DNA from: a bacterium
GTDB taxonomy: Bacteria; Chloroflexota; Chloroflexia; Thermomicrobiales; UBA6265
Direction: 5' to 3'
Assembly: GCA_029977305.1 (NCBI GenBank)
Contig: JAPOLF010000002.1
Span: 1-41,071 of the forward strand
Length of the DNA stretch: 41,071 nucleotides
Shown: piece after piece, positions 10,481 to 28,585 of the stretch
Numbering within the stretch: position 1 is the first letter of the stretch
Layout: each line of letters opens with the position of its first letter
Notes under the pieces: model-generated
What the model was told of the DNA's origin: nothing
What the model saw: the letters and a program-made list of their open reading frames with translations, nothing else
Databases searched by the model: none
Translations under genes and position numbers: made by a program

Positions 10481-10497
10481 GGGGGTGCTCCTCTCGG

Positions 10498-12531
10498 CTA
10501 GCGGCCGGCGCCGGTGGTGATCACCAAGTTGCCGATCTCGTCGATCACGGCCGTCTGGCCGGGGGAGATGACGGTGGTGCTTGCGGGCTCCTCGACCACG
10601 GCCGGGCCGCTGATCGCACGCCCGAGGGGCAGCGCGCTGCGTTCCCAGATGGTGGCCTCGAGGCGCCCGTGCTCATCGAAATCCACCAACCGCTTGCCCT
10701 TGGGCACGCCATCGCCGCCCTGCGTCAGGCGGGAGAGGGCGGGCTTGGGCGAAGGAACGCTGGCAACCACGTGGTAGTTCACGATCTCGGTCGGCGTGTC
10801 GAGCCGGAAGGTGTATGCCCGGTTGTGCAACTGGTGGAAGGTCTCGACGACGTCCGCGAGCGAGCCCTCGACTGGGAACGGGACGCGGACGGTGTGCTCC
10901 TGTCCTTGGTATCGCATGTCGGCGAATTGCTCGATGACCACCGCGCTCGGCGACTCACCGCGATCGGCGAAAAACGTGCGTGCTTCCTGCGAGAGCGCGG
11001 CGAAGCGCCCGGCGATGGTCGCCGCGGCCGCTGAGGTCGCGGGGGTGACCGCGGTCTGCACGAAATCCTGCAGGGGGTCGGTCATCAGCATGCCCCACGC
11101 GGAGAAGTGGCCTGGGGCAGGCGGGATGATCACCGTGTTCACGTGGAGTTCGCCGGCGAGGGCGGCCGCATGCATCGCCCCGCCGCCACCGAAGGCGATG
11201 AGCGCGAAATCGCGGGGGTCATAGCCGCGGCGGACCGAGACGAGTTTGAGCGCGTTGATCATGTTGGCGTTGGCGATGCGGATCACGCCGAGAGCAGCCT
11301 CGTCGACACTGACGCCGAGGGCGCGGGCGATCGGATCCATGGCGCGGCGGGCAGCGTCCACACTGACCGTGATCTCGCCACCGAGGAAGTAGTCGGGGTT
11401 GATGCGTCCTGCTATCAGGTTGGCGTCGGTGACGGTGGGTTGGGTGCCGCCCTTGCCGTAGCAGGCGGGACCGGGGATCGCCCCGGCGCTCTTTGGACCG
11501 ACCTTCAGCGCGCCGCCGTCGTCGATCCACGCGATGCTCCCGCCGCCGGCGCCGATCTCGACGATGTCGACGACCGGGGCTTTGATCGGGTAGCCGGCGT
11601 TGTGCTCGTCGCGCTCGATCCGGTACTCGGTGGTGATCTTGACGATGCCATCGTCGACGAGAGTGCATTTGGCGGTGGTCCCGCCGATGTCGAGGGTGAT
11701 CAGATCGGTGATCCCGATCGCCTTGCCGATCGCGACCGCCCCGATCACGCCACCGACCGGACCCGATTCGACGAGGTGGATCGGCTGCTCCGCGAGGACC
11801 TCAAAGGACTGGGTGCCGCCGTTGGACTTCATCGCGTTGAGGCGGGAGGCGACCCCGGCGCCGCGGAGGTCGCGCTCGAGCGCCCCGAGGTAGCTAGACG
11901 CCACCGGTTGCACAAACGCATTCAGCACGGCGGTGGACGTCCGCTCATATTCGCGCCATTCGCGGGTGAGATCGCTGGCGGCGGTGACGGTGACCCCCGG
12001 GAGGCGTTGCCGGAGGATGTCGGCGACCTGCCGCTCGTGCGCGGGGTTGGCGTAGCTGTGGAGGAAGCTGACCGCAACCGCACCGACCTCCGCCGCAGCG
12101 AGCTCATCGGCCACCGCGTCCACCGTGGCAAGGTCGAGCGGGGTGACGATCTCACCCTTGTAGTTGCAGCGCTCGCGCACCTCGAAGCGGAGATGCCGCG
12201 GTACGAATGGCTCCTGCTTGCGGAACCGCAGGTTGTAGATGTCGGGGCGATTGGCGCGGCCGATGGCGAGGACGTCGCGGCACCCCTCGGTGGTGACGAG
12301 CGCGGTCTTGGCGCCTTTGCGCTCGGTGAGGGCATTGATCACCACGGTGGTGCCGTGGACGAAGTGGTCGATCGCCTCGGGCGGGACGCCGGATTTGCGC
12401 AAGGCGTCCATGATGCCGTCGGCGAAGGCCGGAGGCGTCGAGGAGGCTTTGGCGAGACCGACCTGTCCGGTGGCGTCGTCGAGGTAGACCAAGTCGGTGA
12501 ATGTTCCGCCGATGTCGGTGGCGAGTCTCAC
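10498..12531 (-). CDS. hyuA: Hydantoinase A / oxoprolinase-family ATPase subunit (N-methylhydantoinase A type)
   Basis: GTG start at 12531 (VRLATDIGGTFTDLVY), preceded by GGGAGG, giving 677 aa. ASKHA phosphate motifs DIGGTFTD and LDIGGTTAKC. The 984-aa ORF on the track is an implausible 5' extension across the ABM gene and the divergent DUF917 gene. Confidence 0.85.
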   Translation of the reverse strand: MRLATDIGGTFTDLVYLDDATGQVGLAKASSTPPAFADGIMDALRKSGVPPEAIDHFVHGTTVVINALTERKGAKTALVTTEGCRDVLAIGRANRPDIYNLRFRKQEPFVPRHLRFEVRERCNYKGEIVTPLDLATVDAVADELAAAEVGAVAVSFLHSYANPAHERQVADILRQRLPGVTVTAASDLTREWREYERTSTAVLNAFVQPVASSYLGALERDLRGAGVASRLNAMKSNGGTQSFEVLAEQPIHLVESGPVGGVIGAVAIGKAIGITDLITLDIGGTTAKCTLVDDGIVKITTEYRIERDEHNAGYPIKAPVVDIVEIGAGGGSIAWIDDGGALKVGPKSAGAIPGPACYGKGGTQPTVTDANLIAGRINPDYFLGGEITVSVDAARRAMDPIARALGVSVDEAALGVIRIANANMINALKLVSVRRGYDPRDFALIAFGGGGAMHAAALAGELHVNTVIIPPAPGHFSAWGMLMTDPLQDFVQTAVTPATSAAAATIAGRFAALSQEARTFFADRGESPSAVVIEQFADMRYQGQEHTVRVPFPVEGSLADVVETFHQLHNRAYTFRLDTPTEIVNYHVVASVPSPKPALSRLTQGGDGVPKGKRLVDFDEHGRLEATIWERSALPLGRAISGPAVVEEPASTTVISPGQTAVIDEIGNLVITTGAGR

Positions 12532-12566
12532 TGGATACCTCCCGGTGATGCGAACGTGGTGGCGGA

Positions 12567-13030: not shown

Positions 13031-14134
13031 ATGAGAGAGATCACGGCGGACAATCTGGCGGCATTGGCGATCGGTGCCGGCATTCTCGGGACAGGTGGCG
13101 GCGGCAATCCGCGGGTGGGGATGCTCACCGCGCTGCAGCACGTGAAGGCGGGTGCGCCGATCCGGGTCGTCGGGATCGAGGAGGTTGGGGACGACGCCTT
13201 CGCGACGAGCGTGGGTGGGATGGGTGCCCCGGTCGTCTCGGTCGAGCGACTGCCGCGCGGAGATGAGCCGCTCAACGCCCTGCGTGCGCTGGAGCACCAT
13301 CTGGGTCGGGCATTCACGCATCTCATCCCCGGGGAGATCGGCGGCGCAAACAGCATGCGGCCGCTGATCGTCGCCGCGCAGACGGGCCTCCCGGTGGTCG
13401 ATGGCGACGGCATGGGCCGCGCCTTCCCGGAACTGCAGATGGACACCTTCACGATCTACGGGGTGCCCCCGACCCCGGGGGCGATTTGCGATCCGCGAGG
13501 ACACGTCGCGATCTTCGATGGCATCGCCGAGGCGCAGACGCTGGAGCGGTACGCCCGCGCGGTGACGATCCAAATGGGTGGCGCTGCCGGATATGCCTTC
13601 CCCCCGATGGATGCCGAGCAACTGCGGCGGACGACGATCCCCGGCACCATCACCCTCGCGCAGCGGATCGGCGAGGCGGTGCTCGGGGCGCGCAACGGCC
13701 GGGGCAATCCGATCGACGCGGCCTTGGCGGTCTCAGGCGGTCGGCGCCTCTTCCACGGCAAGATCACCGATGTCGAGCGGCGGTTGGAGGGTGGGTTCGC
13801 GCGGGGCATCGTGGTGATCGCCGGGGCAGACGAGGATGAGGGGCGCACGCTCCACATCGACTTCCAGAATGAGAACCTGATCGCGCGGGACGGACAGGGC
13901 GCCGTGTTGGCGGTGGTGCCCGATCTGATCTGCATCGTCGATCAGGATTCCGCCGAGCCGATCACCACCGAGTTGCTGCGCTACGGCCTTCGGGTCGCGG
14001 TGTTGGCGATCCCGGCACCGGAATTGCTGAAGACCCCCGAGGCCTTGGCGGTCGTCGGTCCGGCGGCCTTTGGCTATCCGGACGTCGCATATGAGCCGAT
14101 GGACGGCGTCTTCGGGGTTGGCGCGCACGGCTGA
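13031..14134 (+). CDS. DUF917-family protein, paralogue 1
   Basis: Start chosen at MREITADNL (367 aa). Signature blocks [39 protein letters not shown] and PDLICIVDQDSAEPITTELLRYGLRV. About two-thirds identical by eye to paralogue 2 (21623-22726). Confidence 0.85.
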   Translation: MREITADNLAALAIGAGILGTGGGGNPRVGMLTALQHVKAGAPIRVVGIEEVGDDAFATSVGGMGAPVVSVERLPRGDEPLNALRALEHHLGRAFTHLIPGEIGGANSMRPLIVAAQTGLPVVDGDGMGRAFPELQMDTFTIYGVPPTPGAICDPRGHVAIFDGIAEAQTLERYARAVTIQMGGAAGYAFPPMDAEQLRRTTIPGTITLAQRIGEAVLGARNGRGNPIDAALAVSGGRRLFHGKITDVERRLEGGFARGIVVIAGADEDEGRTLHIDFQNENLIARDGQGAVLAVVPDLICIVDQDSAEPITTELLRYGLRVAVLAIPAPELLKTPEALAVVGPAAFGYPDVAYEPMDGVFGVGAHG

Positions 14135-15873: not shown

Positions 15874-17562
15874 ATGTCGGTCAAGCAACTCTCTGACGAC
15901 TTGAATGCGCGGCGGATCTCGCGCCGCCGGTTCTGGCAGGGCGCAGCCGCGCTCGGCTTGACTGCGACGGGCATCAGCGTGCTCGAGCGCGGTGCGCTCG
16001 CCGCTCCGGTGCAGTTCTGGAGCGTGAATCGACAGGATGATCGCGAGCACACCCTGATCGTGGCGGTGTCCGAGAACATCGACACCTTCGACCCGGGCTT
16101 CACCGTCGGCTCGAAGACCGCGCAGACCGCGATCCAGAACACGTTCGACCAACTGACGCAGTACGAGATCGTCGATCTCGTCGCGCCGGACGGCACCCCG
16201 TACAAGGGCGTCAACACCCTCAACATCCTGCCGATGCTTGCGGAGTCGTGGACGCAGGACGGCGACAAGCTCGTCTTCACCATGCGTGACGGTGCGACCT
16301 TCTCCAATGGTGATCCGATCGACGCCAACACGATGGTCGAGGCCTACAAGCGCATCTACGAGACCAACGCGGTCTCCACCTTCCTGCTCAGCATGGGCGG
16401 CGCGGTGACCGGCGCCGATGCGTTCAGCGCCCCGGATGCGAAGACCTTCGTCATCCAGATGTCGAAGCCGAACAGCCTCGTCGCGCAGAACAACACGATG
16501 CACAACACCAGTGCATTGAACCCGAACCAGATCAAGGAAGTTGCCACCGAGGCGGATCCGTGGGGCCTCGAGTTCTTCAAGGCCAACCTCGGCATGGGCA
16601 ACGGCCCGTACATGCTCGAGTCGTACAAGCCGGACGACGCGCTGGTGATGGTCGCGAACCCGAACTACTACGGGGAGCAGCCGTTCTTCACCAAGGTCAT
16701 CCTGAAGGTTGTGCCGGACGCGTCGCAGCGCGTGCAGCTGCTGCTGAACGGCGACGTCGACATGGCCACCCAGATCCCGAAGCAGGAGTACGAGACCCTG
16801 GCGGCGAGCGATGAGATCACCGCCCTCTCGATTCCGTCGAACCTGGTCGCCATGCTCGAGATGAACACCACCCTGGCGCCGTTCGACAAGAAGGAGATCC
16901 GCCAGGCGGTCGCGTACGCGGTGCCGTACCAGGCGATCATCGACCAGGTCTTCAACGGCCAGGCGACCGAGGCGAAGAGCCTCGTCCCGAGCGGGATGCC
17001 GACCAGCGACTTCTCAACCAACATGTACACCACCGACCCGGCAAAGGCGAAGGAACTCCTCGCGGCTGGTGGCTACGACGGGACTCCGGTGAAGCTCAGC
17101 TTCAACGCCGGCATCCCTGAGTGGGAGCGCATCGCGATCCTCGTCCAGGCGGCCCTCAAGGAGGTCGGCATGGAAGTGGAGCTCGAGAAGCTGCCGTACG
17201 CGACCTTCAATGAGCTCGAGCAGGGCCGCAAGCTCCAGATGTGGACGGACGAGTGGATCTCCTGGGTCAACGATCCGTACTACCACCTGAGCTGGCTGGC
17301 CGCGTCGACGAGCCCGACCAACTACCCGAGCTTCGCCAACGAGCGGGTGGACGAGATCATCGCCGAGTTCACCCTTTCCGACCCGTCGCCCGAGAAGGAT
17401 GCGGCGAGCAAGGAAGCGCAGGCGATCATCATCGAAGAGTGCCCGTACGTCTTCCTCTGCCAGCCGAACTGGCTCTTCTACATGCGGAGTGACATCGACA
17501 ACTACGTCTACTACAACGACGAGTTGCCGCGGTACTACCACTTCACGCGCAAGAGCAGCTAG
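15874..17562 (+). CDS. ABC transporter substrate-binding protein, family 5 (peptide/nickel/opine type), Tat signal
   Basis: 562 aa. Signal RRISRRRFWQGAAALGLTATG. AGGAGG RBS. Followed by two permeases and two ATPases in Dpp/Opp order. Confidence 0.85.
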   Translation: MSVKQLSDDLNARRISRRRFWQGAAALGLTATGISVLERGALAAPVQFWSVNRQDDREHTLIVAVSENIDTFDPGFTVGSKTAQTAIQNTFDQLTQYEIVDLVAPDGTPYKGVNTLNILPMLAESWTQDGDKLVFTMRDGATFSNGDPIDANTMVEAYKRIYETNAVSTFLLSMGGAVTGADAFSAPDAKTFVIQMSKPNSLVAQNNTMHNTSALNPNQIKEVATEADPWGLEFFKANLGMGNGPYMLESYKPDDALVMVANPNYYGEQPFFTKVILKVVPDASQRVQLLLNGDVDMATQIPKQEYETLAASDEITALSIPSNLVAMLEMNTTLAPFDKKEIRQAVAYAVPYQAIIDQVFNGQATEAKSLVPSGMPTSDFSTNMYTTDPAKAKELLAAGGYDGTPVKLSFNAGIPEWERIAILVQAALKEVGMEVELEKLPYATFNELEQGRKLQMWTDEWISWVNDPYYHLSWLAASTSPTNYPSFANERVDEIIAEFTLSDPSPEKDAASKEAQAIIIEECPYVFLCQPNWLFYMRSDIDNYVYYNDELPRYYHFTRKSS

Positions 17563-17572
17563 CGCGTTTTGA

Positions 17573-17608
17573 GCCCCCCGGATCGGTGATTCCACCGGTC
17601 CGGGGGGC
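17573..17608 (+). promoter_or_regulatory. Intercistronic GC-rich stem-loop between the family-5 SBP and permease genes
   Basis: GCCCCCCGGAUCGGUG-AUUC-CACCGGUCCGGGGGGC: 16-bp stem (one G-U) with 4-nt loop, 11 nt after the SBP stop (17560-17562). No downstream U-tract. The G6 run can alternatively pair with a C6 run at 17612-17617. Confidence 0.55.
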
Positions 17609-17643
17609 CGACCCCCCACTCGCCTCACGAGGTCCGTCGCCCC

Positions 17644-18657
17644 ATGCGGATGCTCCGCTACATCCTGCGTCGACTCCTGTTCCTGGTGCCGGTGGTGCTC
17701 GGGTCGATTTTCATTGCCTTCCTGCTGACGCGGGTGGTGCCCGGGAACCCGATCGAGCGTGTTGCGGGGCCGTACGCGAGCGAGGAGCGGGTGCTCGAGA
17801 TGAAGGCGGAGGCCAATCTCGACAAGCCGATCCCGCAGCAGTTCCTGATCTATGTCAATGACTTGCTTCACGGCGACATGGGGATGTCCTATACGACGGC
17901 CCAGCCGGTCGGCAAGGACCTGAAAGAGCGGTTCCCCGCGAGCTTCGAACTGGTGATGTTCGCCATCGGGCTGGCGATCGTGCTCGCGATCCCGCTCGGG
18001 GTGGTGAGCGCGGTGAAGCGCGGGTCGTGGATCGACCATGTCGCCCGGGTGATCGCGGTCGCCGGTGTGTCAGCGCCGATCTTCTGGATCGCGATGGTGC
18101 TGCTGTCGATCTTCTACGGGAAGCTCGGCTGGCTGCCGGGATCGCAAGGGCGCCTGCCGATCATCATGTCGCCGCCACCGCACGTGACCGGCATGTACAC
18201 GATCGATGCCCTGCTCGCCGGGGATCCGGTGACCTTCAAGGAGGCGCTGCGGGCGCTGATCCTGCCGGTGTTGACGCTGGCGCTGGTCTCGATGGCGCCG
18301 ATCGCCCGGATGACGCGGGCCACGATGATCGACGCGCTCGATTCCGACTACGTGCGGACGGCGACCTCACTCGGCATCCCGCGGCGGACGGTGGTGATGA
18401 AGCACGCCTTCAAGAACGCGATCATCCCGGTGTTGACGCTGATCGCGGGCGTGATCGGGTACGCCATCGGCGGCGAGGTGCTGATCGAGCTGATCTTCTC
18501 GTGGCCGGGACTCGGGCTGTACTCCTACAACGCGATCATGAGCGCGGATTTCCCCGCCGTGCAGGGATTCATCATCCTCGCCACCTGTCTCTACATCCTC
18601 ATCTACCTGATCGTGGATGTGATCACCGCGTTGCTTGACCCGCGGGTGGAGTACTAG
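17644..18657 (+). CDS. ABC transporter permease (DppB/OppB-like)
   Basis: 337 aa. The N-terminus M(RM)LRYILRRLLFLVPVVLG is typical of DppB-type permeases. Six predicted hydrophobic spans. Confidence 0.85.
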   Translation: MRMLRYILRRLLFLVPVVLGSIFIAFLLTRVVPGNPIERVAGPYASEERVLEMKAEANLDKPIPQQFLIYVNDLLHGDMGMSYTTAQPVGKDLKERFPASFELVMFAIGLAIVLAIPLGVVSAVKRGSWIDHVARVIAVAGVSAPIFWIAMVLLSIFYGKLGWLPGSQGRLPIIMSPPPHVTGMYTIDALLAGDPVTFKEALRALILPVLTLALVSMAPIARMTRATMIDALDSDYVRTATSLGIPRRTVVMKHAFKNAIIPVLTLIAGVIGYAIGGEVLIELIFSWPGLGLYSYNAIMSADFPAVQGFIILATCLYILIYLIVDVITALLDPRVEY

Positions 18658-18659
18658 CG

Positions 18660-19553
18660 ATGAGCGCCACTGCCGCCCAGCCCGAGGCCACGTACGCGCT
18701 GCGCCCGCCGTTCTCCGAGCGGTGGCGACAGGGGATGCGGGCGCTCCGGGCGAATCCGACCGCGGTCGTCGGCCTGGTCATCGTGGTGGCCCTGGTGCTG
18801 ATCGCGATCTTCGCGCCGGTCATCGCGCCCTACGATCCGCAGAAACTCGACATGGAGGTGGTCAGCCAGCCGCCTTCGTCGGCGCACTGGTTCGGCACCG
18901 ATCAGTTCGGGCGCGATGTGCTCTCGTTGGTGATCTGGGGTGCGCGGCTCGATCTCTTCATCGCGCTCTCGGCGGTGATCCTGTCGATGGTCGTCGGCAC
19001 GGTGATCGGCGCGGTCTCCGCCTACGCGGGTGGGATGACCGATGAGATCACGATGCGCACGATGGACATCCTGCAGGCGTTCCCGCGCTTCATCTTCGCG
19101 ATGGGTATCGCGTTCGCGATCGGGCCCGGGATCGGGACGGTGGTGATCGCGACCTCGGTGTTGAACATCCCCGGGTACGCCCGCCTGATGCGTTCGGTGA
19201 TGCTCCCGGCGCGCAAGAGCCAGTACGCCGCCGCCGCCACCTCGGTTGGCGGCTCCCATACCAACGTGTTGTTCCGCCACCTGGTGCCGAACTGCCTGGT
19301 GCCGATCTTCGTGAACTCGACGTTGCAGTTCGGCTGGGCGATTCTCGAGGCGGCGGGGCTGTCCTTCATCGGCCTCGGCGTGGAGAGCTCCGCGGCCGAG
19401 TGGGGCGCGCTGATCCAGCTCGGGTTCCAGGACTTCAACGCCGGCCACTGGTGGATCTACACCTTCCCGGGTCTGGCGATCGCGGTGGCGGTGCTCGGCT
19501 TCAACCTGCTCGGTGATGGCCTGCAGGACATGCTCGATCCGAGGCGGCAGTAA
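18660..19553 (+). CDS. ABC transporter permease (DppC/OppC-like)
   Basis: 297 aa. PSSAHWFGTDQFGRDVLS is the conserved DppC N-terminal periplasmic motif. Starts 2 nt after the preceding stop. Confidence 0.85.
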   Translation: MSATAAQPEATYALRPPFSERWRQGMRALRANPTAVVGLVIVVALVLIAIFAPVIAPYDPQKLDMEVVSQPPSSAHWFGTDQFGRDVLSLVIWGARLDLFIALSAVILSMVVGTVIGAVSAYAGGMTDEITMRTMDILQAFPRFIFAMGIAFAIGPGIGTVVIATSVLNIPGYARLMRSVMLPARKSQYAAAATSVGGSHTNVLFRHLVPNCLVPIFVNSTLQFGWAILEAAGLSFIGLGVESSAAEWGALIQLGFQDFNAGHWWIYTFPGLAIAVAVLGFNLLGDGLQDMLDPRRQ

Positions 19554-20585
19554 GTGATGGCTGAGAAGATGACCGCCGCTCCGCTGCTCCGGGTGGAGAA
19601 TCTGCAGACCTCCTTCTTCACCCGCCGCGGCGTCGCGAAAGTGCTCGACGGGTTCGACCTCGAACTGCGGCGCGGGGAGATCCTCGGGCTGGTCGGCGAG
19701 AGCGGCTCGGGCAAGAGCGTCACCGGCTACTCGATCATCGGGTTGCTCAAGCACCCCGGGAAGATCGTCGGCGGCGAGATCCGCTTCTACGGCAGCAAGG
19801 GTGACCAGCAGGGTATCGATCTCGTCACGTTGCCGGCGAAGCAGATGGCCGAGGTGCGGGGCAAGGAGATCGCGATGATCTTCCAGAACCCGCGCTCGTG
19901 CCTCGATCCGCTGATGAGCGTCGGCGACCAGATCATGGAAGTGCTGAAGTACCGGCGGGGGATGTCGAAGAGCGAGGCGCGCGCGGAATGCATCCGCCTG
20001 CTGAAGACGGTGCACATCCCTGAGCCGGAACGGCGGATGAACGCCTACCCGCACCAATTGTCGGGCGGCATGGCGCAGCGCGTGATGATCGCAATGGCGA
20101 TCTCGTGCGCACCGACGCTGCTGATCGCGGATGAACCGACCACCGGTCTCGACGTCACCACCGAGCACCAGATCCTCGAACTGCTGCGCGAGATGCGCGA
20201 TGTCACCGGTGCCGGGATCATCCTGATCACGCACGACCTGAACATGGCCGCCGAGGTGTGTGACCGGATCACGGTCATGTACGCCGGGAACACCGCGGAG
20301 ACCGCTCCGGTCGAGACCTTCTTCTCCGCTCCTCGGCACCCGTACACGCTCGGGTTGCTCGCATCGCGGCCGCGACTCGGGGAGGAGGGGGACATCCCCA
20401 CCATCCCGGGAAATGTGCCGGATTTGATCCAACGTCCGACCGGCTGCCCGTTCCACCCGCGGTGCCGCTGGGCCACGGAGATCTGCGCGGCGCAGGAGCC
20501 GGAGCCGCGCGTCATCGGCGAAGGACACGTCGTCGCCTGCCATCACACGGAGGTCGTCGCCCGCGATGTCATCGCTGCGGATTGA
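19554..20585 (+). CDS. ABC transporter ATP-binding protein (DppD/OppD-like)
   Basis: Walker A GESGSGKS, signature LSGGMAQRVMIAMAI, Walker B LLIADEPTTGLD. C-terminal oligopeptide-ATPase extension with the CPFHPRC cysteine motif. GTG at 19554 directly abuts the upstream TAA; ATG at 19557 is an equally possible start. Confidence 0.85.
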   Translation: MMAEKMTAAPLLRVENLQTSFFTRRGVAKVLDGFDLELRRGEILGLVGESGSGKSVTGYSIIGLLKHPGKIVGGEIRFYGSKGDQQGIDLVTLPAKQMAEVRGKEIAMIFQNPRSCLDPLMSVGDQIMEVLKYRRGMSKSEARAECIRLLKTVHIPEPERRMNAYPHQLSGGMAQRVMIAMAISCAPTLLIADEPTTGLDVTTEHQILELLREMRDVTGAGIILITHDLNMAAEVCDRITVMYAGNTAETAPVETFFSAPRHPYTLGLLASRPRLGEEGDIPTIPGNVPDLIQRPTGCPFHPRCRWATEICAAQEPEPRVIGEGHVVACHHTEVVARDVIAAD

Positions 20586-21612
20586 GCATCTGGTCAAGCA
20601 CTACGCGATCCGCACGGGCTTCGCCTCGCGGCAGATGCTGCATGCGGTCGATGACATCTCCCTCGACCTCGGGGCGGGCGAGACGCTCGGCTTGGTCGGG
20701 GAGAGCGGCTCCGGGAAGAGCACCGTCGGCAAGTGCGTGACGATGCTCGAGCGGCCGACCTCCGGCCACATCTTCCTTGGCGATGTCGACCTGACCACCC
20801 TGAGCTACAACGAGCTGCGACCGGTGCGCAAAGACATCCAAATGGTCTTCCAAGACCCGAGCGACTCGTTGGATCCGCGCCGCACCGCCGGGGAGACGGT
20901 GATGGAGCCGCTGACGCTCCACCACATCGCCTCCGGCAAGGACGCGATCGAGCGCACCGCGAAGCTGTTCGAGCAGGTTGGGCTGAAACCGGAGCACATG
21001 GTCCGGTTCCCGCACCAGCTCTCGGGCGGGCAGCAGCAGCGGGTGGGGATCGCGCGGGCACTGGCGACCGATCCGAAGGTGATCGTGCTCGACGAGCCGA
21101 CCTCGGCGCTCGACGTCTCGGTGCAGGCGAAACTGATCAAGTTGCTGCGCGATCTGCAGCGCGAGCGGTCGCTCAGCTATCTCTTCATCTCGCATGACCT
21201 CTCGGTGATCGGATACCTCTCGACGCGGGTCGCCGTGATGTACCTCGGGCAGATCGTCGAGATCGGTGAGACGCGGCAGGTCTTCGAGCGGCCGCATCAC
21301 CCCTACACCATGGCGCTGATGAGCGCGGTGCCGGCCTCGAATCCGCTGGAGCGGCGGGAGCGGATCCATCTCAGCGGGGAGATCCCCTCGCCGATCGCTC
21401 CGCCGAACCATTGCCGATTGGTGTCGCGCTGCCCGTTTGCGGTGCCGGCCTGCTCGCAGCAGCCAGCAGTGCTCGAACCGATCGCGCCCGGACATCTCGT
21501 CGCGTGCCATCGGGCGGTGAAGGGCGAGATCCCGATCCCGACGTTCGCGTTCGGATCGACGGTGACGGTCGACAGCCTCGAGGGCGGCGCGGCCGTCGAG
21601 GGGCTCGAATAG
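20566..21612 (+). CDS. ABC transporter ATP-binding protein (DppF/OppF-like)
   Basis: Walker A GESGSGKST, signature LSGGQQQRVGIARAL, Walker B VIVLDEPTSALD, C-terminal CRLVSRCPF motif. Overlaps the preceding ATPase gene by 20 nt. Confidence 0.85.
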   Translation: MSSLRIEHLVKHYAIRTGFASRQMLHAVDDISLDLGAGETLGLVGESGSGKSTVGKCVTMLERPTSGHIFLGDVDLTTLSYNELRPVRKDIQMVFQDPSDSLDPRRTAGETVMEPLTLHHIASGKDAIERTAKLFEQVGLKPEHMVRFPHQLSGGQQQRVGIARALATDPKVIVLDEPTSALDVSVQAKLIKLLRDLQRERSLSYLFISHDLSVIGYLSTRVAVMYLGQIVEIGETRQVFERPHHPYTMALMSAVPASNPLERRERIHLSGEIPSPIAPPNHCRLVSRCPFAVPACSQQPAVLEPIAPGHLVACHRAVKGEIPIPTFAFGSTVTVDSLEGGAAVEGLE

Positions 21613-21622
21613 CGGACCGCGC

Positions 21623-22726
21623 CTAGCCGCGGAGCCCGCTGCCGAAGACGCCGGGCATCGGGATGAATTCCACCTCCGGATACCCGAATGCGGCAGGACC
21701 GACGACACGCAGCGCCTCGGGGGTCTTCAGCATCTCGCTGGCCGGGATCGCCATCACGACGACGCGCATGCCGTACCGCAGGATCTCGGTGGTGATCGGT
21801 TCGGCCGAGTCTTGATCCACGATGCAGATGAGATCCGGGACCACCGCGAGCACGGCACCGGTGTCGTCCCGCGCGATGAGGTTCTCGTTCTGGAAGTCGA
21901 TGACCATCGCGCGGTCGCGGTCGGGGCCGATGCCCTCGAGATGGAGGACGCCGCGGGCGAAACCGCCGACGAGGCGGCGCGAGACGTCGACGATCTTGCC
22001 GTGGAAGAGGCGCTCGCCTCCCGCGACGGCGAGCGCGGCGTCCACCGGATCGCCGGTGCCACCGCGAGCCGCGAGCACCGCCTCGCCGATCTTGGTCGCC
22101 AGGGTGTAGGTGCCGGCCACGGTGGTGCGGCGGAGCTCGGCGGCGGTCATCGGCGGGAAGGCGTAGCCGCTGGAGGCGCCCATCTCGACGCAGACGACCC
22201 GGGCGTAGCGTTCGAGGGTCTGGGCGTCGTCGATGCCGTCGAACGTGACGACGTGGCCGCGCGGATCGGCGATGGCCGCCGGCGTCGGGGCGACGCCGTA
22301 GATGGTGAAGGTGTCCATCTGGAGCTCGGGGAAGGCGCGACCCATGCCGTCACCGTCGATCACGGGCAGGCCGGTCTGGGCGCCGACGATGAGGGGTGCC
22401 ATGGAGTTGATACCGCCGATCTCGCTGGCGATGAGGTGGGTGAAGCGGCGACCGATGTGGTCCTCGAGCGCGCGCATGGCGAGCAGCGGCTCGTCGCCGC
22501 GGTTGATGCGTTCATTCGAGACGATGGGTGCGCCCATGTTGCCGACGGTGGTGGCGTAGGCGTCGTCACCGATCTCGTCGAGCGAGACGACGGTGATGGA
22601 GCGCCCGGCGCGCAGGTGGGTGAGTGCCTCGAGTTTGCCGACGAAGGGGTTGCCGCCGCCTCCGGTGCCGAGGATGCCAGCCCCGATGGCGAGTGCTTCG
22701 AGCATCGATTCCGTCACCTGGTACAT
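21623..22726 (-). CDS. DUF917-family protein, paralogue 2
   Basis: 367 aa. [39 protein letters not shown] and PDLICIVDQDSAEPITTEILRYGMRV. Collinear with paralogue 1 over its full length. Confidence 0.85.
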   Translation of the reverse strand: MYQVTESMLEALAIGAGILGTGGGGNPFVGKLEALTHLRAGRSITVVSLDEIGDDAYATTVGNMGAPIVSNERINRGDEPLLAMRALEDHIGRRFTHLIASEIGGINSMAPLIVGAQTGLPVIDGDGMGRAFPELQMDTFTIYGVAPTPAAIADPRGHVVTFDGIDDAQTLERYARVVCVEMGASSGYAFPPMTAAELRRTTVAGTYTLATKIGEAVLAARGGTGDPVDAALAVAGGERLFHGKIVDVSRRLVGGFARGVLHLEGIGPDRDRAMVIDFQNENLIARDDTGAVLAVVPDLICIVDQDSAEPITTEILRYGMRVVVMAIPASEMLKTPEALRVVGPAAFGYPEVEFIPMPGVFGSGLRG

Positions 22727-22904: not shown

Positions 22905-24458
22905 ATGAGTCTGCGCATCGGCATCGACGTCGGCGGAACGAACACCGACGCCGTCCTCATGGACGATTTGAAAGTAGTTTCCAAGATCAAGACGCCGACG
23001 ACCGCGGACGTGACCACGGGCATCACCAACGGCCTCAAGTTCGTGCTCGAGAGCTCCGGCACCGCAACCTCTGCGGTGAACGGCGTGATGATCGGCACCA
23101 CCCATTTCACCAATGCGGTGGTGGAGCGACGCCGCCTGCAGAAGACGGCCGCGGTGCGACTCGGGTTGCCGGCGACGGCGGCCCTTCCTCCGATGGTTGA
23201 CTGGCCGCAGGACCTTGCCGACACGATCGGCGGCAACAACTACCTCTGCCACGGTGGCCATGAGTTCGACGGGCGCCCGATCTCCGCCCTGCGGCCGGAT
23301 GAGATCAAGGCGGTTGCCGAGGATCTGAACGCGAAGGGGATCACCGCGGTCGCGGTCTCCTCGGTCTTCTCGCCGGTCAACACAGACCTCGAAAATGAGG
23401 TCGCGGCGATGCTCCGCGAGTGGGTGCCGGGTGTCTCGGTCACTCCGTCGCACGAGATCGGGCGCATCGGCCTGCTCGAGCGCGAGAATGCGGCCATCCT
23501 CAATGCCTGCCTGCGGCAACTGGCGGCCGAAACCGTTGCCGCCTTCCGCAAGGCGATCAGCGACATGGGGATCACCGCGCCGCTCTATCTGACCCAGAAC
23601 GACGGCACCCTGATGAGCGCGGAGTTCGCCGAGCAGTACCCGGTGCTGACCTTCGCGTCGGGACCGACGAACTCGATGCGTGGCGCCGCCTTCCTCTCGG
23701 GGTTGAAGGACGCCATGGTGGTTGACGTGGGCGGCACGACGTCGGACGTCGGCGCGCTGACCCACGGCTTCCCGCGTGAGGCATCGGTGGCCGTTGATAT
23801 CGGCGGGGTGCGCACCAACTTCCGCATGCCGGACGTCTTCTCGTTCGGCTTGGGCGGCGGCTCGCTGGTGAAGGAGGACCCGCTGCGGATCGGGCCGCAG
23901 TCGGTCGGCTTCCGGATCACGCAGGAGGCCTTGGTCTTCGGTGGCAACACCTTGACGACCACCGACATCGCGGTGGCCGCGGGTGTCGCTGAGATCGGCG
24001 ATCCCTCGCGCGTCGCCCACCTCGACAAGGCGCTGGTCGCGGCGGCCATGGCTCGCATCCAAGAAATGAGCGAGGCGGCGGTCGACCGGATGAAGACGAG
24101 TGCGGAGCCGGTTCCGGTGATCGTGGTCGGCGGCGGCAGCGTCCTGATCGCGAAGCCGCTTGCCGGGGCATCGGAGATGGTGAAGCCGAACCATTACGAG
24201 GCCGCCAACGCGGTCGGCGCGGCGATCGCGCAGATCTCTGGCGAGGTCGATCGGGTCTATTCGCTGGCGGGGATGTCCCGCGACGCGGCGCTCGACGATG
24301 CGAAGAGTGAGGCATCGCAGAAGGCCGTTGAGGCGGGGGCCGACCCCTCGACGGTGCAGATCGTCGACGTCGAGGACGTGCCGCTGGCGTACCTGCCGGG
24401 CAACGCGACGCGGATCCGGGTGAAGGCGGTGGGGGACCTCACGCTGGTGGGGAGGTAA
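22905..24458 (+). CDS. Hydantoinase/oxoprolinase-family ATPase, short HyuA-like form with no adjacent HyuB partner
   Basis: 517 aa. ASKHA motifs RIGIDVGGTNTDAVL and MVVDVGGTTSDVGAL. GGGAGAG RBS. About 160 aa shorter than the canonical HyuA at 10498-12531. Followed after a 3-nt gap by DUF917 paralogue 3. Confidence 0.8.
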   Translation: MSLRIGIDVGGTNTDAVLMDDLKVVSKIKTPTTADVTTGITNGLKFVLESSGTATSAVNGVMIGTTHFTNAVVERRRLQKTAAVRLGLPATAALPPMVDWPQDLADTIGGNNYLCHGGHEFDGRPISALRPDEIKAVAEDLNAKGITAVAVSSVFSPVNTDLENEVAAMLREWVPGVSVTPSHEIGRIGLLERENAAILNACLRQLAAETVAAFRKAISDMGITAPLYLTQNDGTLMSAEFAEQYPVLTFASGPTNSMRGAAFLSGLKDAMVVDVGGTTSDVGALTHGFPREASVAVDIGGVRTNFRMPDVFSFGLGGGSLVKEDPLRIGPQSVGFRITQEALVFGGNTLTTTDIAVAAGVAEIGDPSRVAHLDKALVAAAMARIQEMSEAAVDRMKTSAEPVPVIVVGGGSVLIAKPLAGASEMVKPNHYEAANAVGAAIAQISGEVDRVYSLAGMSRDAALDDAKSEASQKAVEAGADPSTVQIVDVEDVPLAYLPGNATRIRVKAVGDLTLVGR

Positions 24459-24461
24459 CCC

Positions 24462-25556
24462 ATGCGGCAGGTCACGTCGGAAGATCTGAATGACATTGCC
24501 CTCGGGGCGGCGGTGCTCGGCACCGGTGGTGGCGGCGATCCGTACATCGGGAAGTTGATGGCGCAGTCCTCGATGGCCACGCACGGCGCGGCGACGATGA
24601 TGTATGCCGACGAACTCGACGATGACGACCTTGTCATCCCCTCGGCGATGATGGGTGCGCCGACGGTGATGGTCGAGAAGGTGCCGTCGGGGAAAGAGAT
24701 TGTCACCGCGTTCAAGGCACTGACCGAGTACTACGGGAAGGAGCCGCGGGCGACGATGTCCTGCGAGGCGGGCGGGCTCAATTCGACCACCCCGTTCACG
24801 GTGGCGGTCGAACTCGGGATCCCGATCGTCGACGCCGACATGATGGGCCGGGCCTTCCCTGAGTTGCAGATGTGCACGCCGACCCTTGCGGGCATCAACG
24901 CGACTCCCATGGCTGTTGCGGATGAGAAAGGCAACAGCGTCATCATCAACACCGTCGAGAACCGATGGACCGAGACGTTCGCTCGGACGCTCACCGTCGA
25001 CATGGGGTGCTCCGCGATGATCGCGCTGTACGCCATGACCGGGAAGCAGGTGAAGGAGGCGTGCGTGCTCGGCACGATCTCCTACGCCGAGCGGATCGGG
25101 CAGGCGATCCGGCGGGCACGGGCGAACCACCTCGACCCGGTGGAGACGGTGCGTGCGGCGACCGGTGGCTACATCCTCTGGCAGGGAAAAGTGGGGGATG
25201 TCGCGCGGCGGACCGAGACGGGATTCGCGCGAGGCGATGCCCGCATCGACGGCACCGGGGCGTTCGACGGACGATCGCTGTCGCTCTCGTTCCAAAATGA
25301 ATTCCTGATTGCGCGAGACGGTGACACCGTGCTAGCGACGACGCCCGACCTGATCACCGTGCTCGATGCGGAGACCGGCGTGGCGATCACGACCGAGACG
25401 CTGCGGTACGGCTACCGGGTGGTGGTGATCGCGATGCCGTGTGACCCGCGGTGGCGCACGGCTGAGGGGTTGCAACTCGTCGGCCCGGATTACTTCGGCT
25501 ACGGGGTGCCGTACATCCCGGTCGAGCAGCGGATGAAGGCGCTCGGCGGGCGCTGA
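24462..25556 (+). CDS. DUF917-family protein, paralogue 3 (diverged)
   Basis: 364 aa. [37 protein letters not shown] and PDLITVLDAETGVAITTETLRYGYRV. Shares the family blocks but is clearly more distant from paralogues 1 and 2. Confidence 0.8.
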   Translation: MRQVTSEDLNDIALGAAVLGTGGGGDPYIGKLMAQSSMATHGAATMMYADELDDDDLVIPSAMMGAPTVMVEKVPSGKEIVTAFKALTEYYGKEPRATMSCEAGGLNSTTPFTVAVELGIPIVDADMMGRAFPELQMCTPTLAGINATPMAVADEKGNSVIINTVENRWTETFARTLTVDMGCSAMIALYAMTGKQVKEACVLGTISYAERIGQAIRRARANHLDPVETVRAATGGYILWQGKVGDVARRTETGFARGDARIDGTGAFDGRSLSLSFQNEFLIARDGDTVLATTPDLITVLDAETGVAITTETLRYGYRVVVIAMPCDPRWRTAEGLQLVGPDYFGYGVPYIPVEQRMKALGGR

Positions 25557-25566
25557 GGACACGACG

Positions 25567-25899
25567 ATGACCAACAACGAGAACCAGACCACCTATGTGC
25601 TCACCGAGGAACAGGCGCTCGACATGCTGGCGTTCCTCGCCAGCGCGGCGGAGATCTCGCTGCACGAGCCGACCTATTACGGGACCTTCCGCCTGATCGA
25701 CGCGGCGAGTCGCCTGATGGGGTACCTCCTCGAGAGCAACCCGGAGCTCGCAGAGTCGTTCATGCCGGGGTGGAAGCAAGACATTGACACCCGAAAGGTG
25801 TGGATGATGTGGGACCGCCCCGCGTACCAGCAGTTCCTCAAGGAGGCGCCTGCGGTGATCGCCGCCGAGATCAAGCAGCGGCAGGAGGCGGCGGAATGA
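25567..25899 (+). CDS. Small conserved-looking hypothetical protein (110 aa), no family assignable by eye
   Basis: ATG ORF with host-like codon usage, 10 nt after the DUF917-3 stop. Its stop overlaps the nitroreductase start (ATGA at 25896-25899). Predicted soluble and helical (LTEEQALDMLAFLASAAEISLHEPTYYGTFRLIDAASRLMGYLLE). No TM segment or signal peptide. Confidence 0.6.
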   Translation: MTNNENQTTYVLTEEQALDMLAFLASAAEISLHEPTYYGTFRLIDAASRLMGYLLESNPELAESFMPGWKQDIDTRKVWMMWDRPAYQQFLKEAPAVIAAEIKQRQEAAE

Positions 25900-26468
25900 G
25901 CGAGTTCAGCCCGGAGGCGGACGCCTTCTTCCAGACGCTGAAGACGCGGCGCGTGTGCCGGTCCTACACCGATCAACCGGTCGCCGATGCGCAGTTGCGG
26001 CGCATCACCGAGGCCGGACGATGGGCCAGCAGCGGCGGCAACCGACACATCCACAAGTTCCTGATCGTGCGGGATGCCGAGACGATTCGGCGGGTGCGGT
26101 CGGTGGCGCCGGGGATGCTGGTGGAACCGCCGGCGATGATCGTGATCCTGACCGACAAAGAGGCCGCCGAGCGGGAATGCATCCAACTTGATGTGGATCA
26201 GATCAACCAAGGGGATGTCGGCACCGCGGCCATGAACATGCAGAACATGGCCCATGCGCTCGGACTCGGATCGTGCCCGGTGACCTCCTTCAGCCACTCC
26301 GGCGTCGGGGTGATGCTCGGCTTGCCCGACCATCTCGAAGCGGAGTGGATCATCATGATCGGCCATCCGAAGCCGACCCAGCGCGGGCTCGGCACCGGTG
26401 CGCCGAAGCCGCTGACCGCGCGCGATCTCACGTGGTGGGACCGCGTCGGACACCACGATCCTGTCTAA
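25896..26468 (+). CDS. Nitroreductase-family FMN-dependent oxidoreductase
   Basis: Start chosen at MSEFSPEADAFF (190 aa). TRRVCRSYTDQPV...LRRITEAGRWASSGGNRH and the later LGLGSCPV are typical nitroreductase-fold blocks. The track ORF start at 25800 lies inside the previous gene. Confidence 0.8.
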   Translation: MSEFSPEADAFFQTLKTRRVCRSYTDQPVADAQLRRITEAGRWASSGGNRHIHKFLIVRDAETIRRVRSVAPGMLVEPPAMIVILTDKEAAERECIQLDVDQINQGDVGTAAMNMQNMAHALGLGSCPVTSFSHSGVGVMLGLPDHLEAEWIIMIGHPKPTQRGLGTGAPKPLTARDLTWWDRVGHHDPV

Positions 26469-26507: not shown

Positions 26508-27593
26508 ATGAGTATGACGTTGCACATCGAAGACCTGCCTGATCTCGCGCGCGGCGCGGCCTTCCTCGGGAGCGGCGGCGGCGGCAACCCGTACATCGGG
26601 CGGCTGATGGTCGAGCGGGCGATGCGCGAAACCGGACGCCCGCTGGAACTCTTGGATCTCGAGGAACTCCCCGACGACGCCTTCGTGATCACGACCGCGA
26701 TGATGGGTGCGCCCACCTGCATCGTGGAGAAGCTGCCGGAGGGGATGGAGGCTGCCCACTCGCTGCGGCGGCTGGAGGAGCACCTTGGTCGCAAGGCGAC
26801 GGCGACGATGCCGATCGAGGCGGGCGGGGTGAACTCGATGATCCCGCTGGTGGTGGGGATGCGGCTCGGGTTGCCGGTCGTCGATGGCGACGGTATGGGC
26901 CGGGCTTTCCCGGAGCTCTATCACGAGACCTTCCACATTTACGGGGTCTCGGGCACGCCCATGGTGATCACCAATGATCATGGCGACCAGACGCTGCTCG
27001 ACACCCATGACAATTACATGATGGAGTGGCTCTCGCGCGGGATCGCGATCCGGATGGGAGGCGTCGCGTACATCGCCGAGTACCCGATGGACGGGGCGAC
27101 CGCGAAGCGCGTCTCGGTGAGCGGGACGATCGGAATGGGTCTGCGGATCGGGCGCGCGATCCGCGAGGCACGCGAGCAGCACCTCGATCCGTTCGACCAC
27201 CTGATCCGGTCGATGGAGGGGACGAGCTACTCCCCGGCGCGGGTGATCTTCACCGGGAAGTTGATCGAGGTGTTCCGGCGGACCAAGGACGGTTTCGCGC
27301 TCGGGACGGTGAAGATTCAGGAGCTGGGCGGTCCGCGGGTGATGACCATCGACTTCCAGAACGAGAACCTCATAGCGATGGTTGATGACGAGGTGCTGGC
27401 CGTCGTGCCGAACCTGATCAACATTCTCGATGCGGAGACCGCGGAGCCGATCACCACCGAGGAGTTGCGCTACGGGCAGCGGGTGAAGGTGATGGTGGTC
27501 TCGGTGCCGCCGATCATGCGCACCCCGGAGGCGATTGCCGTGTGGGGGCCGCGAACGTTCGGATACGACGTCGATTTCGAGCCGCTCACCTGA
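26508..27593 (+). CDS. DUF917-family protein, paralogue 4 (diverged)
   Basis: 361 aa. [39 protein letters not shown] and [26 protein letters not shown]. Confidence 0.8.
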
Positions 27594-27652
27594 CAGCAAT
27601 GCTCCGTCGGCGTCACAATGCCCGTGGCGTCCGGAAGGAAGGAGCAGCGGAC

Positions 27653-28585
27653 ATGGCGAAAGAGATCTTCGTCTGCGTCGGGGTGCACACCGATGCGGTG
27701 GCAGGCTGGCTCGGCTCGTACGGGGGTGAGGATTCGCCCTGTGACATCTCGCGCGGGATGTTCGCCGGGGAGATCGGTTCGCCGCGCCTCCTCGATCTCT
27801 TTCACCGCGAGGACATCCGCACGACATGGTTCATCCCCGGGCACACCATCGAGACGTTCCCGAAGCAGATGCAGATGGTGGCGGATGCCGGGCATGAGAT
27901 CGGGCTGCACGGGTACTCGCACGAGAACCCATTGGCGATGTCGGCGAAGCAGGAGAAGGCGGTCCTCCGGAAATCGATCGAGCTGGTGACGCAGTTGAGC
28001 GGGCGAGCGCCGCGCGGCTATGTCGCGCCGTGGTGGGAGCTGTCGGAATCAACGGTGGGCCTGCTGCTCGAGCACGGCATCACCTATGACAACTCCTTGA
28101 TGGACAACGACTTCCACCCGTTCTATGCGCGGGTCGGCGACAGTTGGACGAAGATCGACTACCGCAAATCGGCGAAATCGTGGATGAAGCCGCTGAAGCG
28201 CGGGACGGAGACCGATCTGGTCGAGATCGGCGCCAACTGGTACCTCGACGATCTGCCGCCGATGCTCTTCATCAAGAAGAGCCCCAACAGCCACGGGTTC
28301 GTCAACCCGCGCGACATCGAGCAGCTCTGGATCGACCAGTTCGACTGGATCTATCGCGAGTATGACTACGCGGTGGTGCCGCTGACGATCCATCCCGATG
28401 TGTCGGGTAGGCCGCAGGTGCTGATGATGTTGGAGCGCTTCTTCGCCTACGTGCACCGGCATGAGGGGGCGTGGTTCACCACCTTCGAGGAGGCGGCCGA
28501 CAACTTCCGGTTGCGCTTCCCGCGCGGCGGTGAGGCACGGCCCGAGAGTGTGCGCGATCGCTGGGAGCACGGGCCGACGGGGTAG
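27653..28585 (+). CDS. Polysaccharide-deacetylase (NodB-homology / PuuE-like) family hydrolase
   Basis: Start chosen at [14 protein letters not shown], preceded by GGAAGGAAGGAG (310 aa). Has a TTWFIPGHT strand, the HGYSHE (H-x-x-x-H type) motif and a [12 protein letters not shown] block, all typical of NodB-fold deacetylases/allantoinase PuuE relatives. Confidence 0.7.

Follow-up and report, generated by a model that had tools for sequence, protein, structure and literature searches.

The window analysed, i.e. the whole stretch of DNA examined, comprises 41,071 nucleotides (positions 1 to 41,071 of the forward strand of contig JAPOLF010000002.1, assembly GCA_029977305.1) from a bacterium of the Chloroflexota (Thermomicrobiales, UBA6265). 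It carries a gene for a short HyuA-like ATPase followed immediately by a DUF917 gene, and the features considered are the following:

8780..12552, minus strand: canonical HyuB (566 aa) and HyuA (about 684 aa, with Hydant_A_C), comparators outside the module
13031..14134, plus strand: DUF917 paralogue 1, clade B, adjoining the canonical HyuA gene
15874..21612, plus strand: ABC importer of the oligopeptide/dipeptide type (family-5 binding protein, two permeases, two ATPases)
21623..22726, minus strand: DUF917 paralogue 2, 367 aa, clade B, divergent from the ATPase operon
22905..24458, plus strand: short HyuA-like ASKHA ATPase (HyuAs), 517 aa, ATG start, recognised by open reading frame, Pfam matches and motifs
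24450..24464, plus strand: junction of the two genes, read directly from the sequence (GGGAGG, then TAA, CCC, ATG)
24462..25556, plus strand: DUF917 paralogue 3, 364 aa, ATG start, clade A (PF06032 and PF20906), the immediate partner of the ATPase
25567..25899, plus strand: DUF6092 protein, 110 aa (PF19585), AlbB-like small subunit of a cyclodipeptide-oxidase-like pair
25896..26468, plus strand: nitroreductase-fold protein (PF00881), AlbA-like large subunit
26508..27593, plus strand: DUF917 paralogue 4, 361 aa, of the clade A sub-branch that usually follows the oxidase pair

The preliminary description of this locus had reported a 517-residue ATPase and a DUF917 start 3 nt past its stop codon, and the open reading frames and the junction bear this out. 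The Shine-Dalgarno-like GGGAGG (24450-24455) lies within the last codons of the ATPase gene and is followed by TAA (24456-24458), CCC (24459-24461) and the ATG at 24462. Since GGGAGG is placed 6 nt upstream of the paralogue 3 start codon, the arrangement fits translational coupling. Both ASKHA motifs named earlier were found, DVGGTNTD at residues 8-15 and DVGGTTSD at residues 274-281, their D, G and T positions being at least 97% conserved among 102 family members; a third one, VGGGS (408-412), is likewise conserved. In the Pfam scan the protein matched Hydant_A_N (1.3e-39) and Hydantoinase_A (1.6e-27, covering only profile positions 1-210 of 291), while Hydant_A_C (PF19278), which the canonical HyuA of the window possesses, was absent. 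These two proteins of the window are 28% identical, over residues 3-360 only. Orthologues of the short ATPase share 60-83% identity across phyla, and in the genome searches they scored at least 499 bits as against at most 122 bits for canonical HyuA. The ATPase part of a modelled natural fusion (see below) matched acetone carboxylase beta (5SVC_B, Z 30) and caprolactamase alpha (6YRA_A, Z 22). Structurally it comes closest (Z 21-30) to the subunits that phosphorylate the substrate in acetone carboxylase, caprolactamase and N-methylhydantoinase; the matches cover chain residues 6-614 of 691, and the alignments stop near residues 614-636 in chains of 691-710 residues.

The absence of an adjoining HyuB gene was likewise corroborated. 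Only two HyuB genes were found in the assembly, which is 70% complete, one at 8780-10480 in the window and the other on contig C90, and each of them adjoins a canonical HyuA gene. The designation "paralogue 3" was also justified, the four DUF917 genes of the window being the only ones detected in the assembly.

Paralogue 3 matched both Pfam domains of its family, S-Me-THD_N (PF06032, the former DUF917; 1.1e-59) and S-Me-THD_C (PF20906; 6.5e-70), and in the tree it belongs to a clade dominated by first-downstream genes. Its predicted model (pLDDT 94.9) superimposes on 2O3I with Z 41.3 and an rmsd of 2.0 over 336 residues at 27% identity. 2O3I, CV_3147 of Chromobacterium violaceum, is a structural-genomics structure that has neither an assigned function nor a recorded partner, and it is the only solved one of the DUF917 fold. 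The possibility that DUF917 is a distant homologue or analogue of HyuB was considered and rejected, as 2O3I was the sole match both in Foldseek against the PDB and in a second search of 48,161 chains that did not use Foldseek. Chains containing HyuB were missing from both result lists, which is an absence in searches and not a proof of differing folds. GGGG22-25, D124, R130, R175 and N279-E280 are conserved in the whole DUF917 family. A further set, E72, E102, N107, D126, E134, R249, R315 and R319, is kept in the ATPase-linked sequences compared, from clade A as well as clade B, whereas the desulfurases of the family have other residues there; all four paralogues of the window carry it, and so do three of the four aligned fusions.

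Around this pair, paralogues 1 and 2 are 73% identical, and paralogue 2 is probably a second DUF917 subunit of the module. The stop codon of the DUF6092 gene overlaps the start of the nitroreductase-fold gene (ATGA), the order being B then A. The best solved-structure match of the nitroreductase-fold protein was albonoursin synthase AlbA (8UC3_A, E 8e-24), and that of the DUF6092 protein was AlbB (9EXV_C), weak at E 3e-4. A PuuE-like deacetylase and a creatininase are among the neighbours.

The preliminary description had proposed that DUF917 takes the place of the catalytic B subunit, and it named the lack of a conserved adjacency in other genomes as a result that would speak against this. 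Such an adjacency was found. Of the 80 related loci, 75 have downstream sequence, and in 72 of these DUF917 was the first downstream gene on the same strand, at distances of 3-237 nt; 70 of these genes were full-length and 2 were cut by a contig end. In two further loci an inserted oxidase pair precedes DUF917. The adjacency extends over at least six bacterial phyla (Chloroflexota, Bipolaricaulia, Bacillota, Actinomycetota, Deinococcota and Alphaproteobacteria were represented) and one archaeal assembly, and HyuB was present in none of the 80 loci. Culturable carriers, such as strains of Rhizobium or Devosia, are among the sources of these loci. Of 151 genomes of the phylum that were sampled independently, 6 had the short ATPase, and DUF917 directly adjoined it in all 6; DUF917 was present in only 12 of the 151. 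The earlier caveat that the canonical HyuA/HyuB pair of the window has a DUF917 neighbour too does not apply generally, since no such neighbour was seen in the 11 other DUF917-bearing genomes of this sample; in a close relative (locus L002) the orthologue of paralogue 1 adjoins the short ATPase and not a canonical HyuA. Clade A and clade B genes occur together in 52 of 77 related loci, and a single ATPase gene is accompanied by four DUF917 genes in the window and by up to six elsewhere. In most of the 80 loci the surroundings of the short ATPase gene, usually on its upstream side, contain matches to the ATPase gene of the window's importer, and often also to the family-5 binding protein of that importer. 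The oxidase pair was detected in only about 10 of the 80 and is thus an optional accessory. Published data agree with the pairing: the ATPase and DUF917 genes of C. difficile (CDR20291_1615-1617) are adjoining and co-regulated (PMC12915319), and in L. rhamnosus the pair carries consecutive accession numbers (PMC7513527). No functional study of the pair was found in the searchable literature.

The survey for HyuA-DUF917 fusions that had been suggested was also positive. Among the best 150 representatives (50% identity) of the ATPase family, every one of the 52 relatives longer than 850 aa has a C-terminal DUF917, and none of the 150 contains HyuB (PF02538). The domain order of the fusions equals the gene order, ATPase then DUF917, and Pfam confirmed all nine fusions checked. 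The named carriers include green algae, sea anemone, amphioxus, scallops and many fungi. A few metagenome proteins have other architectures: P0121 is a tandem DUF917 B-A fusion, P0146 a reversed DUF917-ATPase and P0127 a fusion with a creatininase fragment, and in the precomputed annotation still others are joined to permease or TonB-receptor domains. Since all of these could be gene-calling mergers, little weight was given to them. The interaction, whose absence from predictions had also been named as contrary evidence, is addressed by the model of the natural fusion P0167 (987 aa). With a pLDDT of 92.2, a pTM of 0.93 and a disordered linker at residues 570-600, it is predicted to fold into a single compact unit. 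The model suggests an interaction of the two parts, although pTM reflects an interface only indirectly.

The occurrence of the adjacency in many phyla and of fusions in eukaryotes argues for an ATPase-DUF917 partnership, with small cyclic amides as candidate substrates. Together with the predicted compact fusion, these data support DUF917 as the partner of the ATPase in the position of HyuB. The reading that we favour, with moderate confidence, is that the short ATPase and paralogue 3 are the two components of an ATP-dependent enzyme in which the non-homologous DUF917 replaces HyuB, and that a clade B DUF917 such as paralogue 2 probably belongs to it as well. If the ASKHA ATPase works like that of N-methylhydantoinase, 5-oxoprolinase and caprolactamase, it would transfer phosphate to the carbonyl oxygen of a cyclic amide or ureide that has been imported. 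The labile phospho-intermediate would be bound by DUF917, which would break the bond, by ring opening or by displacement of the phosphate. In the reactions of thiohydantoin and S-methyl-thiohydantoin desulfurases, the leaving group is a sulfur that the hydantoin ring already carries at C2. The ATPase-linked branch may perform the equivalent chemistry on oxygen analogues, which would first need a phosphate as leaving group. To our knowledge, and judging by database names and genomic context, the characterised desulfurases appear to need no ATPase partner. The Opp/Dpp-type importer, the AlbAB-like oxidase pair, the PuuE-like deacetylase and the creatininase suggest a 2,5-diketopiperazine-like or hydantoin-like substrate.

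Enzymes of consecutive pathway steps may also adjoin or be fused, thus adjacency and fusion are no proof of a shared intermediate. DUF917 could be an ATP-independent hydrolase of hydantoin-like rings, and the ATPase could be a kinase for the product of DUF917 or for the preceding substrate, the two being linked only for co-expression or channelling. The characterised DUF917 relatives seem to be stand-alone, to judge by the names of NF058529 and NF058532 and by genomic context; DUF917 proteins have been proposed to be hydantoinase-like hydrolases (PMC11055893), and each locus has several DUF917 genes for one ATPase gene. However, the ATPase was never met without DUF917 (6 of 6 in the phylum sample; 72 of 75 loci for direct adjacency), and the extra acidic and arginine residues of the ATPase-linked branch would not be explained by a plain hydrolase. 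Moreover, the solved close relatives of the ATPase pass a phospho-intermediate to a partner subunit, and we know of none that releases a stable phosphorylated product instead. This explanation is therefore regarded as unlikely, though it is the strongest of the competing ones.

Less probable still is a role of the ATPase as an ATP-dependent activase, chaperone or reactivase of DUF917, comparable to GlmL/MutL of glutamate mutase, the diol-dehydratase reactivase or the HgdC-type activators. The short ATPase does give a weak Pfam match to MutL (28.1 bits, the cut-off being 27) and a GlmL match, and the reactivase and activator structures 2D0O, 1HUX and 4EHU are matched at Z 16-18, but HyuA-type subunits match far better (Z 21-30), across the whole 510 residues. 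Furthermore, no conserved cysteine able to ligate a bridging Fe-S cluster is seen in the conservation map, and in DUF917, whose sole fold match is 2O3I, nothing points to a site for a radical or cobalamin cofactor.

The preliminary description had also allowed for a desulfurising enzyme, and the names of the Pfam and NCBIfam families would place the pair in (S-methyl)thiohydantoin or ergothioneine catabolism. Paralogue 3 indeed matches NF058532 (1.8e-34) and NF058529 (9.1e-29), but at 119.2 and 100.6 bits it stays far under the equivalog cut-offs of 450 and 440, while true desulfurases score at least 599 bits to NF058529. The identity between paralogue 3 and the true desulfurases is about 26%. 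In the tree (FastTree, local support 99) a long branch sets the latter apart from all 276-280 ATPase-linked DUF917 sequences, and they differ in the eight residues described above. In the three genomes where they were found they do not adjoin a short ATPase, which two of these genomes lack altogether. The Pfam scans of the window genes named neither an ergothionase nor a thiourocanate hydratase. The annotation of paralogue 3 as a desulfurase was rejected on score, tree position and residues, and we consider desulfurisation very improbable here. A chance or lineage-specific adjacency of no functional meaning, for which only its general possibility speaks, is refuted for practical purposes by the conservation across phyla and the eukaryotic fusions.

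Returning to the two-component enzyme, a wider interpretation can be put forward, more tentatively and with somewhat less than even confidence. The short ATPase and DUF917 may represent a distinct, ancient class of ATP-driven ring-opening enzymes, found in bacteria and archaea and fused in algae, fungi and invertebrates, in which a fold unrelated to HyuB would handle the phosphorylated intermediate. The bacterial ATPase could serve a heteromer or a panel of clade A and clade B specificity subunits, in a modular system that breaks down diketopiperazines, hydantoins and similar cyclic amides; we know of few or no enzymes that degrade such compounds. Stable lactams and ureides, among them 5-oxoproline, N-methylhydantoin and caprolactam, are opened at the expense of ATP by HyuA/HyuB enzymes, the textbook route. 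If the interpretation is true, there would be a second widespread solution to this task, in which the HyuA-type ATPase core is wired to an unrelated partner, with a fused form in animals, algae and fungi. Its thousands of members would make up a new enzyme family to which no reaction has been assigned. A mechanistic frame for DUF917 would follow as well, one branch acting on substrates that bring a sulfur leaving group and the other on oxygen analogues that are phosphorylated first. The breakdown of cyclic dipeptides by microbes is poorly understood (PMC3852281), and the operon, with its importer, ATPase, several DUF917 genes and AlbAB-like oxidase pair, is a clonable candidate for this process.

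A published study has found that cyclodipeptide-oxidase clusters of the non-CDPS type are enriched in DUF917 genes and dipeptide/oligopeptide ABC transporters (Nat Commun 2024, PMC11055893), a combination which is matched by the window. That study calls DUF917 uncharacterised and takes it as a possible plain hydantoinase, and it does not mention the short HyuA-like ATPase. With the desulfurases, the ATPase-linked DUF917 proteins share the two-domain fold family, the GGGG loop, D124, R130, R175 and N279-E280; however, the desulfurases are encoded by stand-alone genes, whereas the ATPase-linked proteins adjoin the short ATPase and, in the sequences aligned, carry the eight branch-specific residues. 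The comparison with HyuA/HyuB enzymes included N-methylhydantoinase (7HK5, 9H03), 5-oxoprolinase/caprolactamase (6YRA), acetone carboxylase (5SVB, 5SVC, 5M45) and acetophenone carboxylase (5L9W). The short ATPase has in common with HyuA the ASKHA fold with its inserted domain, the N-terminal and central Pfam domains and the nucleotide motifs, but it is about 170 residues shorter and lacks Hydant_A_C. Its DUF917 partner appears to have a different fold from HyuB, with no likeness detectable in the searches, and the several DUF917 paralogues per ATPase gene make a stoichiometry unlike that of HyuA/HyuB. In both systems, nevertheless, the partner is encoded in the same operon or fused, the order is ATPase then partner, and the genomic context points to the catabolism of cyclic amides.

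The short ATPase gene and the DUF917 gene following it lie in high-GC DNA with best matches to Thermomicrobiales-type Chloroflexota. The assembly is 70% complete, and every DUF917 gene found in it is one of the four listed here. The relevant genes are the following:

8780-12552, minus strand: canonical HyuB/HyuA pair
13031-14134, plus strand: DUF917 paralogue 1
15874-21612: Opp/Dpp-type ABC importer, upstream of the ATPase operon
21623-22726, minus strand: DUF917 paralogue 2
22905-24458, plus strand: short ATPase, open reading frame of 517 aa
24462-25556, plus strand: DUF917 paralogue 3, open reading frame of 364 aa
25567-26468: DUF6092 gene and overlapping nitroreductase-fold gene
26508-27593, plus strand: DUF917 paralogue 4

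The preliminary description of a HyuA-like ATPase directly followed by paralogue 3 proved accurate: both reading frames, the 3-nt gap and both ATP-binding motifs could be read in the window, and the junction fits translational coupling. The junction is GGGAGG TAA CCC ATG, thus paralogue 3 starts 3 nt past the ATPase stop and the ribosome-binding sequence lies within the ATPase gene. In Pfam the ATPase matched Hydant_A_N and, in truncated form, Hydantoinase_A, with no match to Hydant_A_C; paralogue 3 matched both DUF917 domains, S-Me-THD_N and S-Me-THD_C. The motifs DVGGTNTD (residues 8-15), DVGGTTSD (274-281) and VGGGS (408-412) were conserved among 102 family members. Canonical HyuA and the short ATPase share only 28% identity, limited to residues 3-360. 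Paralogues 1 and 2 share 73% identity with each other and 43-47% with paralogues 3 and 4.

A scan covering a single genome of each prokaryotic species yielded 515 ATPase relatives, from which the best 80 loci (60-83% identity) were taken. They came from Chloroflexota, Bipolaricaulia, an archaeal assembly, Bacillota, Actinomycetota, Deinococcota and many Alphaproteobacteria, including cultured Rhizobium and Pleomorphomonas strains. The suggestion that DUF917 occupies the place of the B subunit was supported: a full-length DUF917 gene came next after the ATPase gene, in the same orientation, in 70 of the 80 loci (gaps of 3-237 nt) and one cut by the contig end in two more, while HyuB was found in none of the 80. 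Five loci had no sequence downstream of the ATPase, in two the cyclodipeptide-oxidase-like pair lay between ATPase and DUF917, and in one DUF917 was present only as a divergent upstream copy. In an independent sample, 151 genomes drawn evenly from the phylum, the ATPase match scores were sharply bimodal, with orthologues matching along their full length at 499 bits or more and canonical HyuA scoring at most 122 bits, reaching at most residues 1 to about 400. Orthologues occurred in 6 and DUF917 in 12 of these genomes, and in all six orthologue-bearing genomes DUF917 directly adjoined the ATPase, in either order. One genome of the phylum carries two short-ATPase genes in one cluster (G074:C132:3716-9722), each with a flanking DUF917 gene; they are 49% and 65% identical to that of the window, and the open frame around the second is 956 aa long. 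In Firmicutes a permease gene accompanies the same pair; in L. rhamnosus it is annotated as a cytosine permease (PMC7513527), and the three genes change expression together in C. difficile (PMC12915319).

The caveat that DUF917 also neighbours the canonical hyuA/hyuB pair did not hold generally. No DUF917 gene adjoined canonical HyuA in the 11 other DUF917-bearing genomes of the 151-genome sample, and in a close relative (locus L002) the orthologue of paralogue 1 adjoins the short ATPase; the placement of paralogue 1 beside HyuAB is local to the window. The open reading frame holding the canonical HyuA (10498-13452, minus strand) encodes 984 aa from a GTG. Its HyuA domains begin only at residue 310. 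The true start is near 12552, so that about 480 nt of intergenic DNA separate it from the divergent paralogue 1.

The proposed survey of gene fusions was also positive. Most of 40 longer relatives of paralogue 3 were proteins of 900-1100 aa with the ATPase domains preceding DUF917, from green algae, sea anemone, amphioxus, scallops and many fungi. An exhaustive profile-free ATPase search gave 1,204 representatives at E <= 1e-30; the best 150 of these included 52 proteins of more than 850 aa, every one of which carried a C-terminal DUF917 and none HyuB. Pfam recovered all four domains in each of the nine fusions submitted to it, and the domain order equals the gene order in the operons. Other architectures, some of which may be gene-calling mergers, included DUF917 with an NCS1 permease domain (P0126, P0155) or TonB-receptor domains (P0123) in precomputed annotation, and, confirmed by Pfam, an ATPase-DUF917-creatininase fragment (P0127), the reversed order DUF917-ATPase (P0146) and a protein of 2715 aa in which NB-ARC and TPR domains come after the ATPase-DUF917 unit (P0288).

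One natural fusion, P0167, has 987 aa and shares 55% identity with the window ATPase. Its model has pLDDT 92.2 and, although residues 570-600 are disordered, a pTM of 0.93 over the whole chain, a high value that indirectly implies that the two modules are packed together with good confidence. Over about 510 residues its ATPase part aligned with acetone carboxylase beta (Z 30), caprolactamase alpha (Z 22) and N-methylhydantoinase (Z 21). These alignments leave about 75-80 C-terminal residues of the two-subunit enzymes' chains uncovered, thus the short ATPase is a HyuA core without the C-terminal domain. The sole structural relative of the paralogue 3 model (pLDDT 94.9) was the unannotated structure 2O3I (Z 41). 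Since neither of two structure search methods returned a HyuB-like fold for this model, DUF917 is predicted to be a non-homologous replacement of HyuB and not a diverged B subunit. That the ATPase serves as an activase or chaperone is improbable.

A tree of 280 DUF917 sequences placed the prokaryotic genes from around the ATPase in two old clades, A (paralogues 3 and 4) and B (paralogues 1 and 2), and the clade tracks operon position. Both were present in 52 of 77 loci, most commonly as ATPase-B-A or B-ATPase-A-A-B, and the window agrees (B divergent upstream, ATPase, A). This co-occurrence suggests a heteromeric DUF917 pair, to which P0121, a 705-aa tandem B-A fusion known from a single gene call, lends weak support. 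Bona fide thiohydantoin desulfurases (about 599 bits to the NCBIfam model NF058529) were found in three alphaproteobacterial genomes, in none of which the short ATPase lies beside them; two of the three lack it altogether. A long branch sets them off from all ATPase-linked DUF917 sequences. The GGGG loop (22-25), D124, R130, R175 and N279-E280 are family-wide. E72, E102, N107, D126, E134, R249, R315 and R319 are replaced in the desulfurases, whereas the ATPase-linked proteins set against them, those of clades A and B and three of the four aligned fusions, conserve them. Judged from sequence, these added carboxylates and arginines may reflect the needs of a metal and phosphoryl-group site. That DUF917 here is a true desulfurase is very improbable.

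In N-methylhydantoinase, 5-oxoprolinase, caprolactamase and acetone carboxylase, the HyuA-type subunit transfers phosphate to a carbonyl oxygen, and the partner subunit receives the unstable intermediate. DUF917 proteins of the desulfurase branch exchange a sulfur substituent on C2 of a hydantoin ring. Since HyuA subunits phosphorylate, and the desulfurases, for which the leaving group is built into the substrate, have no accompanying ATPase, we propose that the short ATPase would make an O-phosphorylated lactim or isourea, on which the ATPase-linked DUF917 would then perform an analogous substitution or ring-opening. That the ATPase and DUF917 are instead two independent consecutive enzymes appears less likely.

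Downstream of paralogue 3 follow the DUF6092 and nitroreductase-fold genes, paralogue 4, a polysaccharide-deacetylase/PuuE-like gene and a GH4 gene. For the deacetylase-fold protein (27542-28585) the top NCBIfam match was the PuuE allantoinase domain, far under the cut-off. Members of that family open a hydantoin ring, in line with the cyclic-amide theme seen across the operon. At the position where the window has the deacetylase and GH4 genes, after the paralogue 4 orthologue, two loci (L003:10035-11174 and L008:10679-11899) carry another HyuA-like gene, which is highly divergent and has 27-28% identity to the short ATPase. The best solved relatives of the nitroreductase-fold and DUF6092 proteins are albonoursin synthase AlbA (8UC3_A, 8e-24) and AlbB (9EXV_C, 3e-4), thus the pair looks like a cyclodipeptide-oxidase-type enzyme. 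It sits in a cluster without cyclodipeptide synthase, and about 10 of the 80 loci have the same pair, some before and some after the ATPase. Most pairs of this type occur in synthase-less clusters, which are enriched in DUF917 genes and dipeptide/oligopeptide transporters (PMC11055893, Nat Commun 2024); that work calls DUF917 uncharacterised and makes no mention of a HyuA-like ATPase. The importer type, the AlbAB-like pair, the PuuE-like deacetylase and a creatininase in the window suggest a diketopiperazine-like or hydantoin-like substrate.

Our literature search found no paper giving the ATPase-DUF917 pair a function or naming DUF917 as the partner of a HyuB-less HyuA; the fusion architecture is already visible to anyone browsing domain databases. 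The window adds the A/B clade structure of the partners, the residue set separating them from desulfurases, the occurrence of true desulfurases without the ATPase, and the connection to AlbAB-like oxidase clusters. Since the system is widespread, uncharacterised and directly testable, its interest is moderate to high. We rate it as a probable ATP-dependent HyuA-type system with a different partner. Its ATPase differs from canonical HyuA in the missing C-terminal domain, and its DUF917 proteins share the family-wide core with the thiohydantoin desulfurases, which lack the additional residue set.
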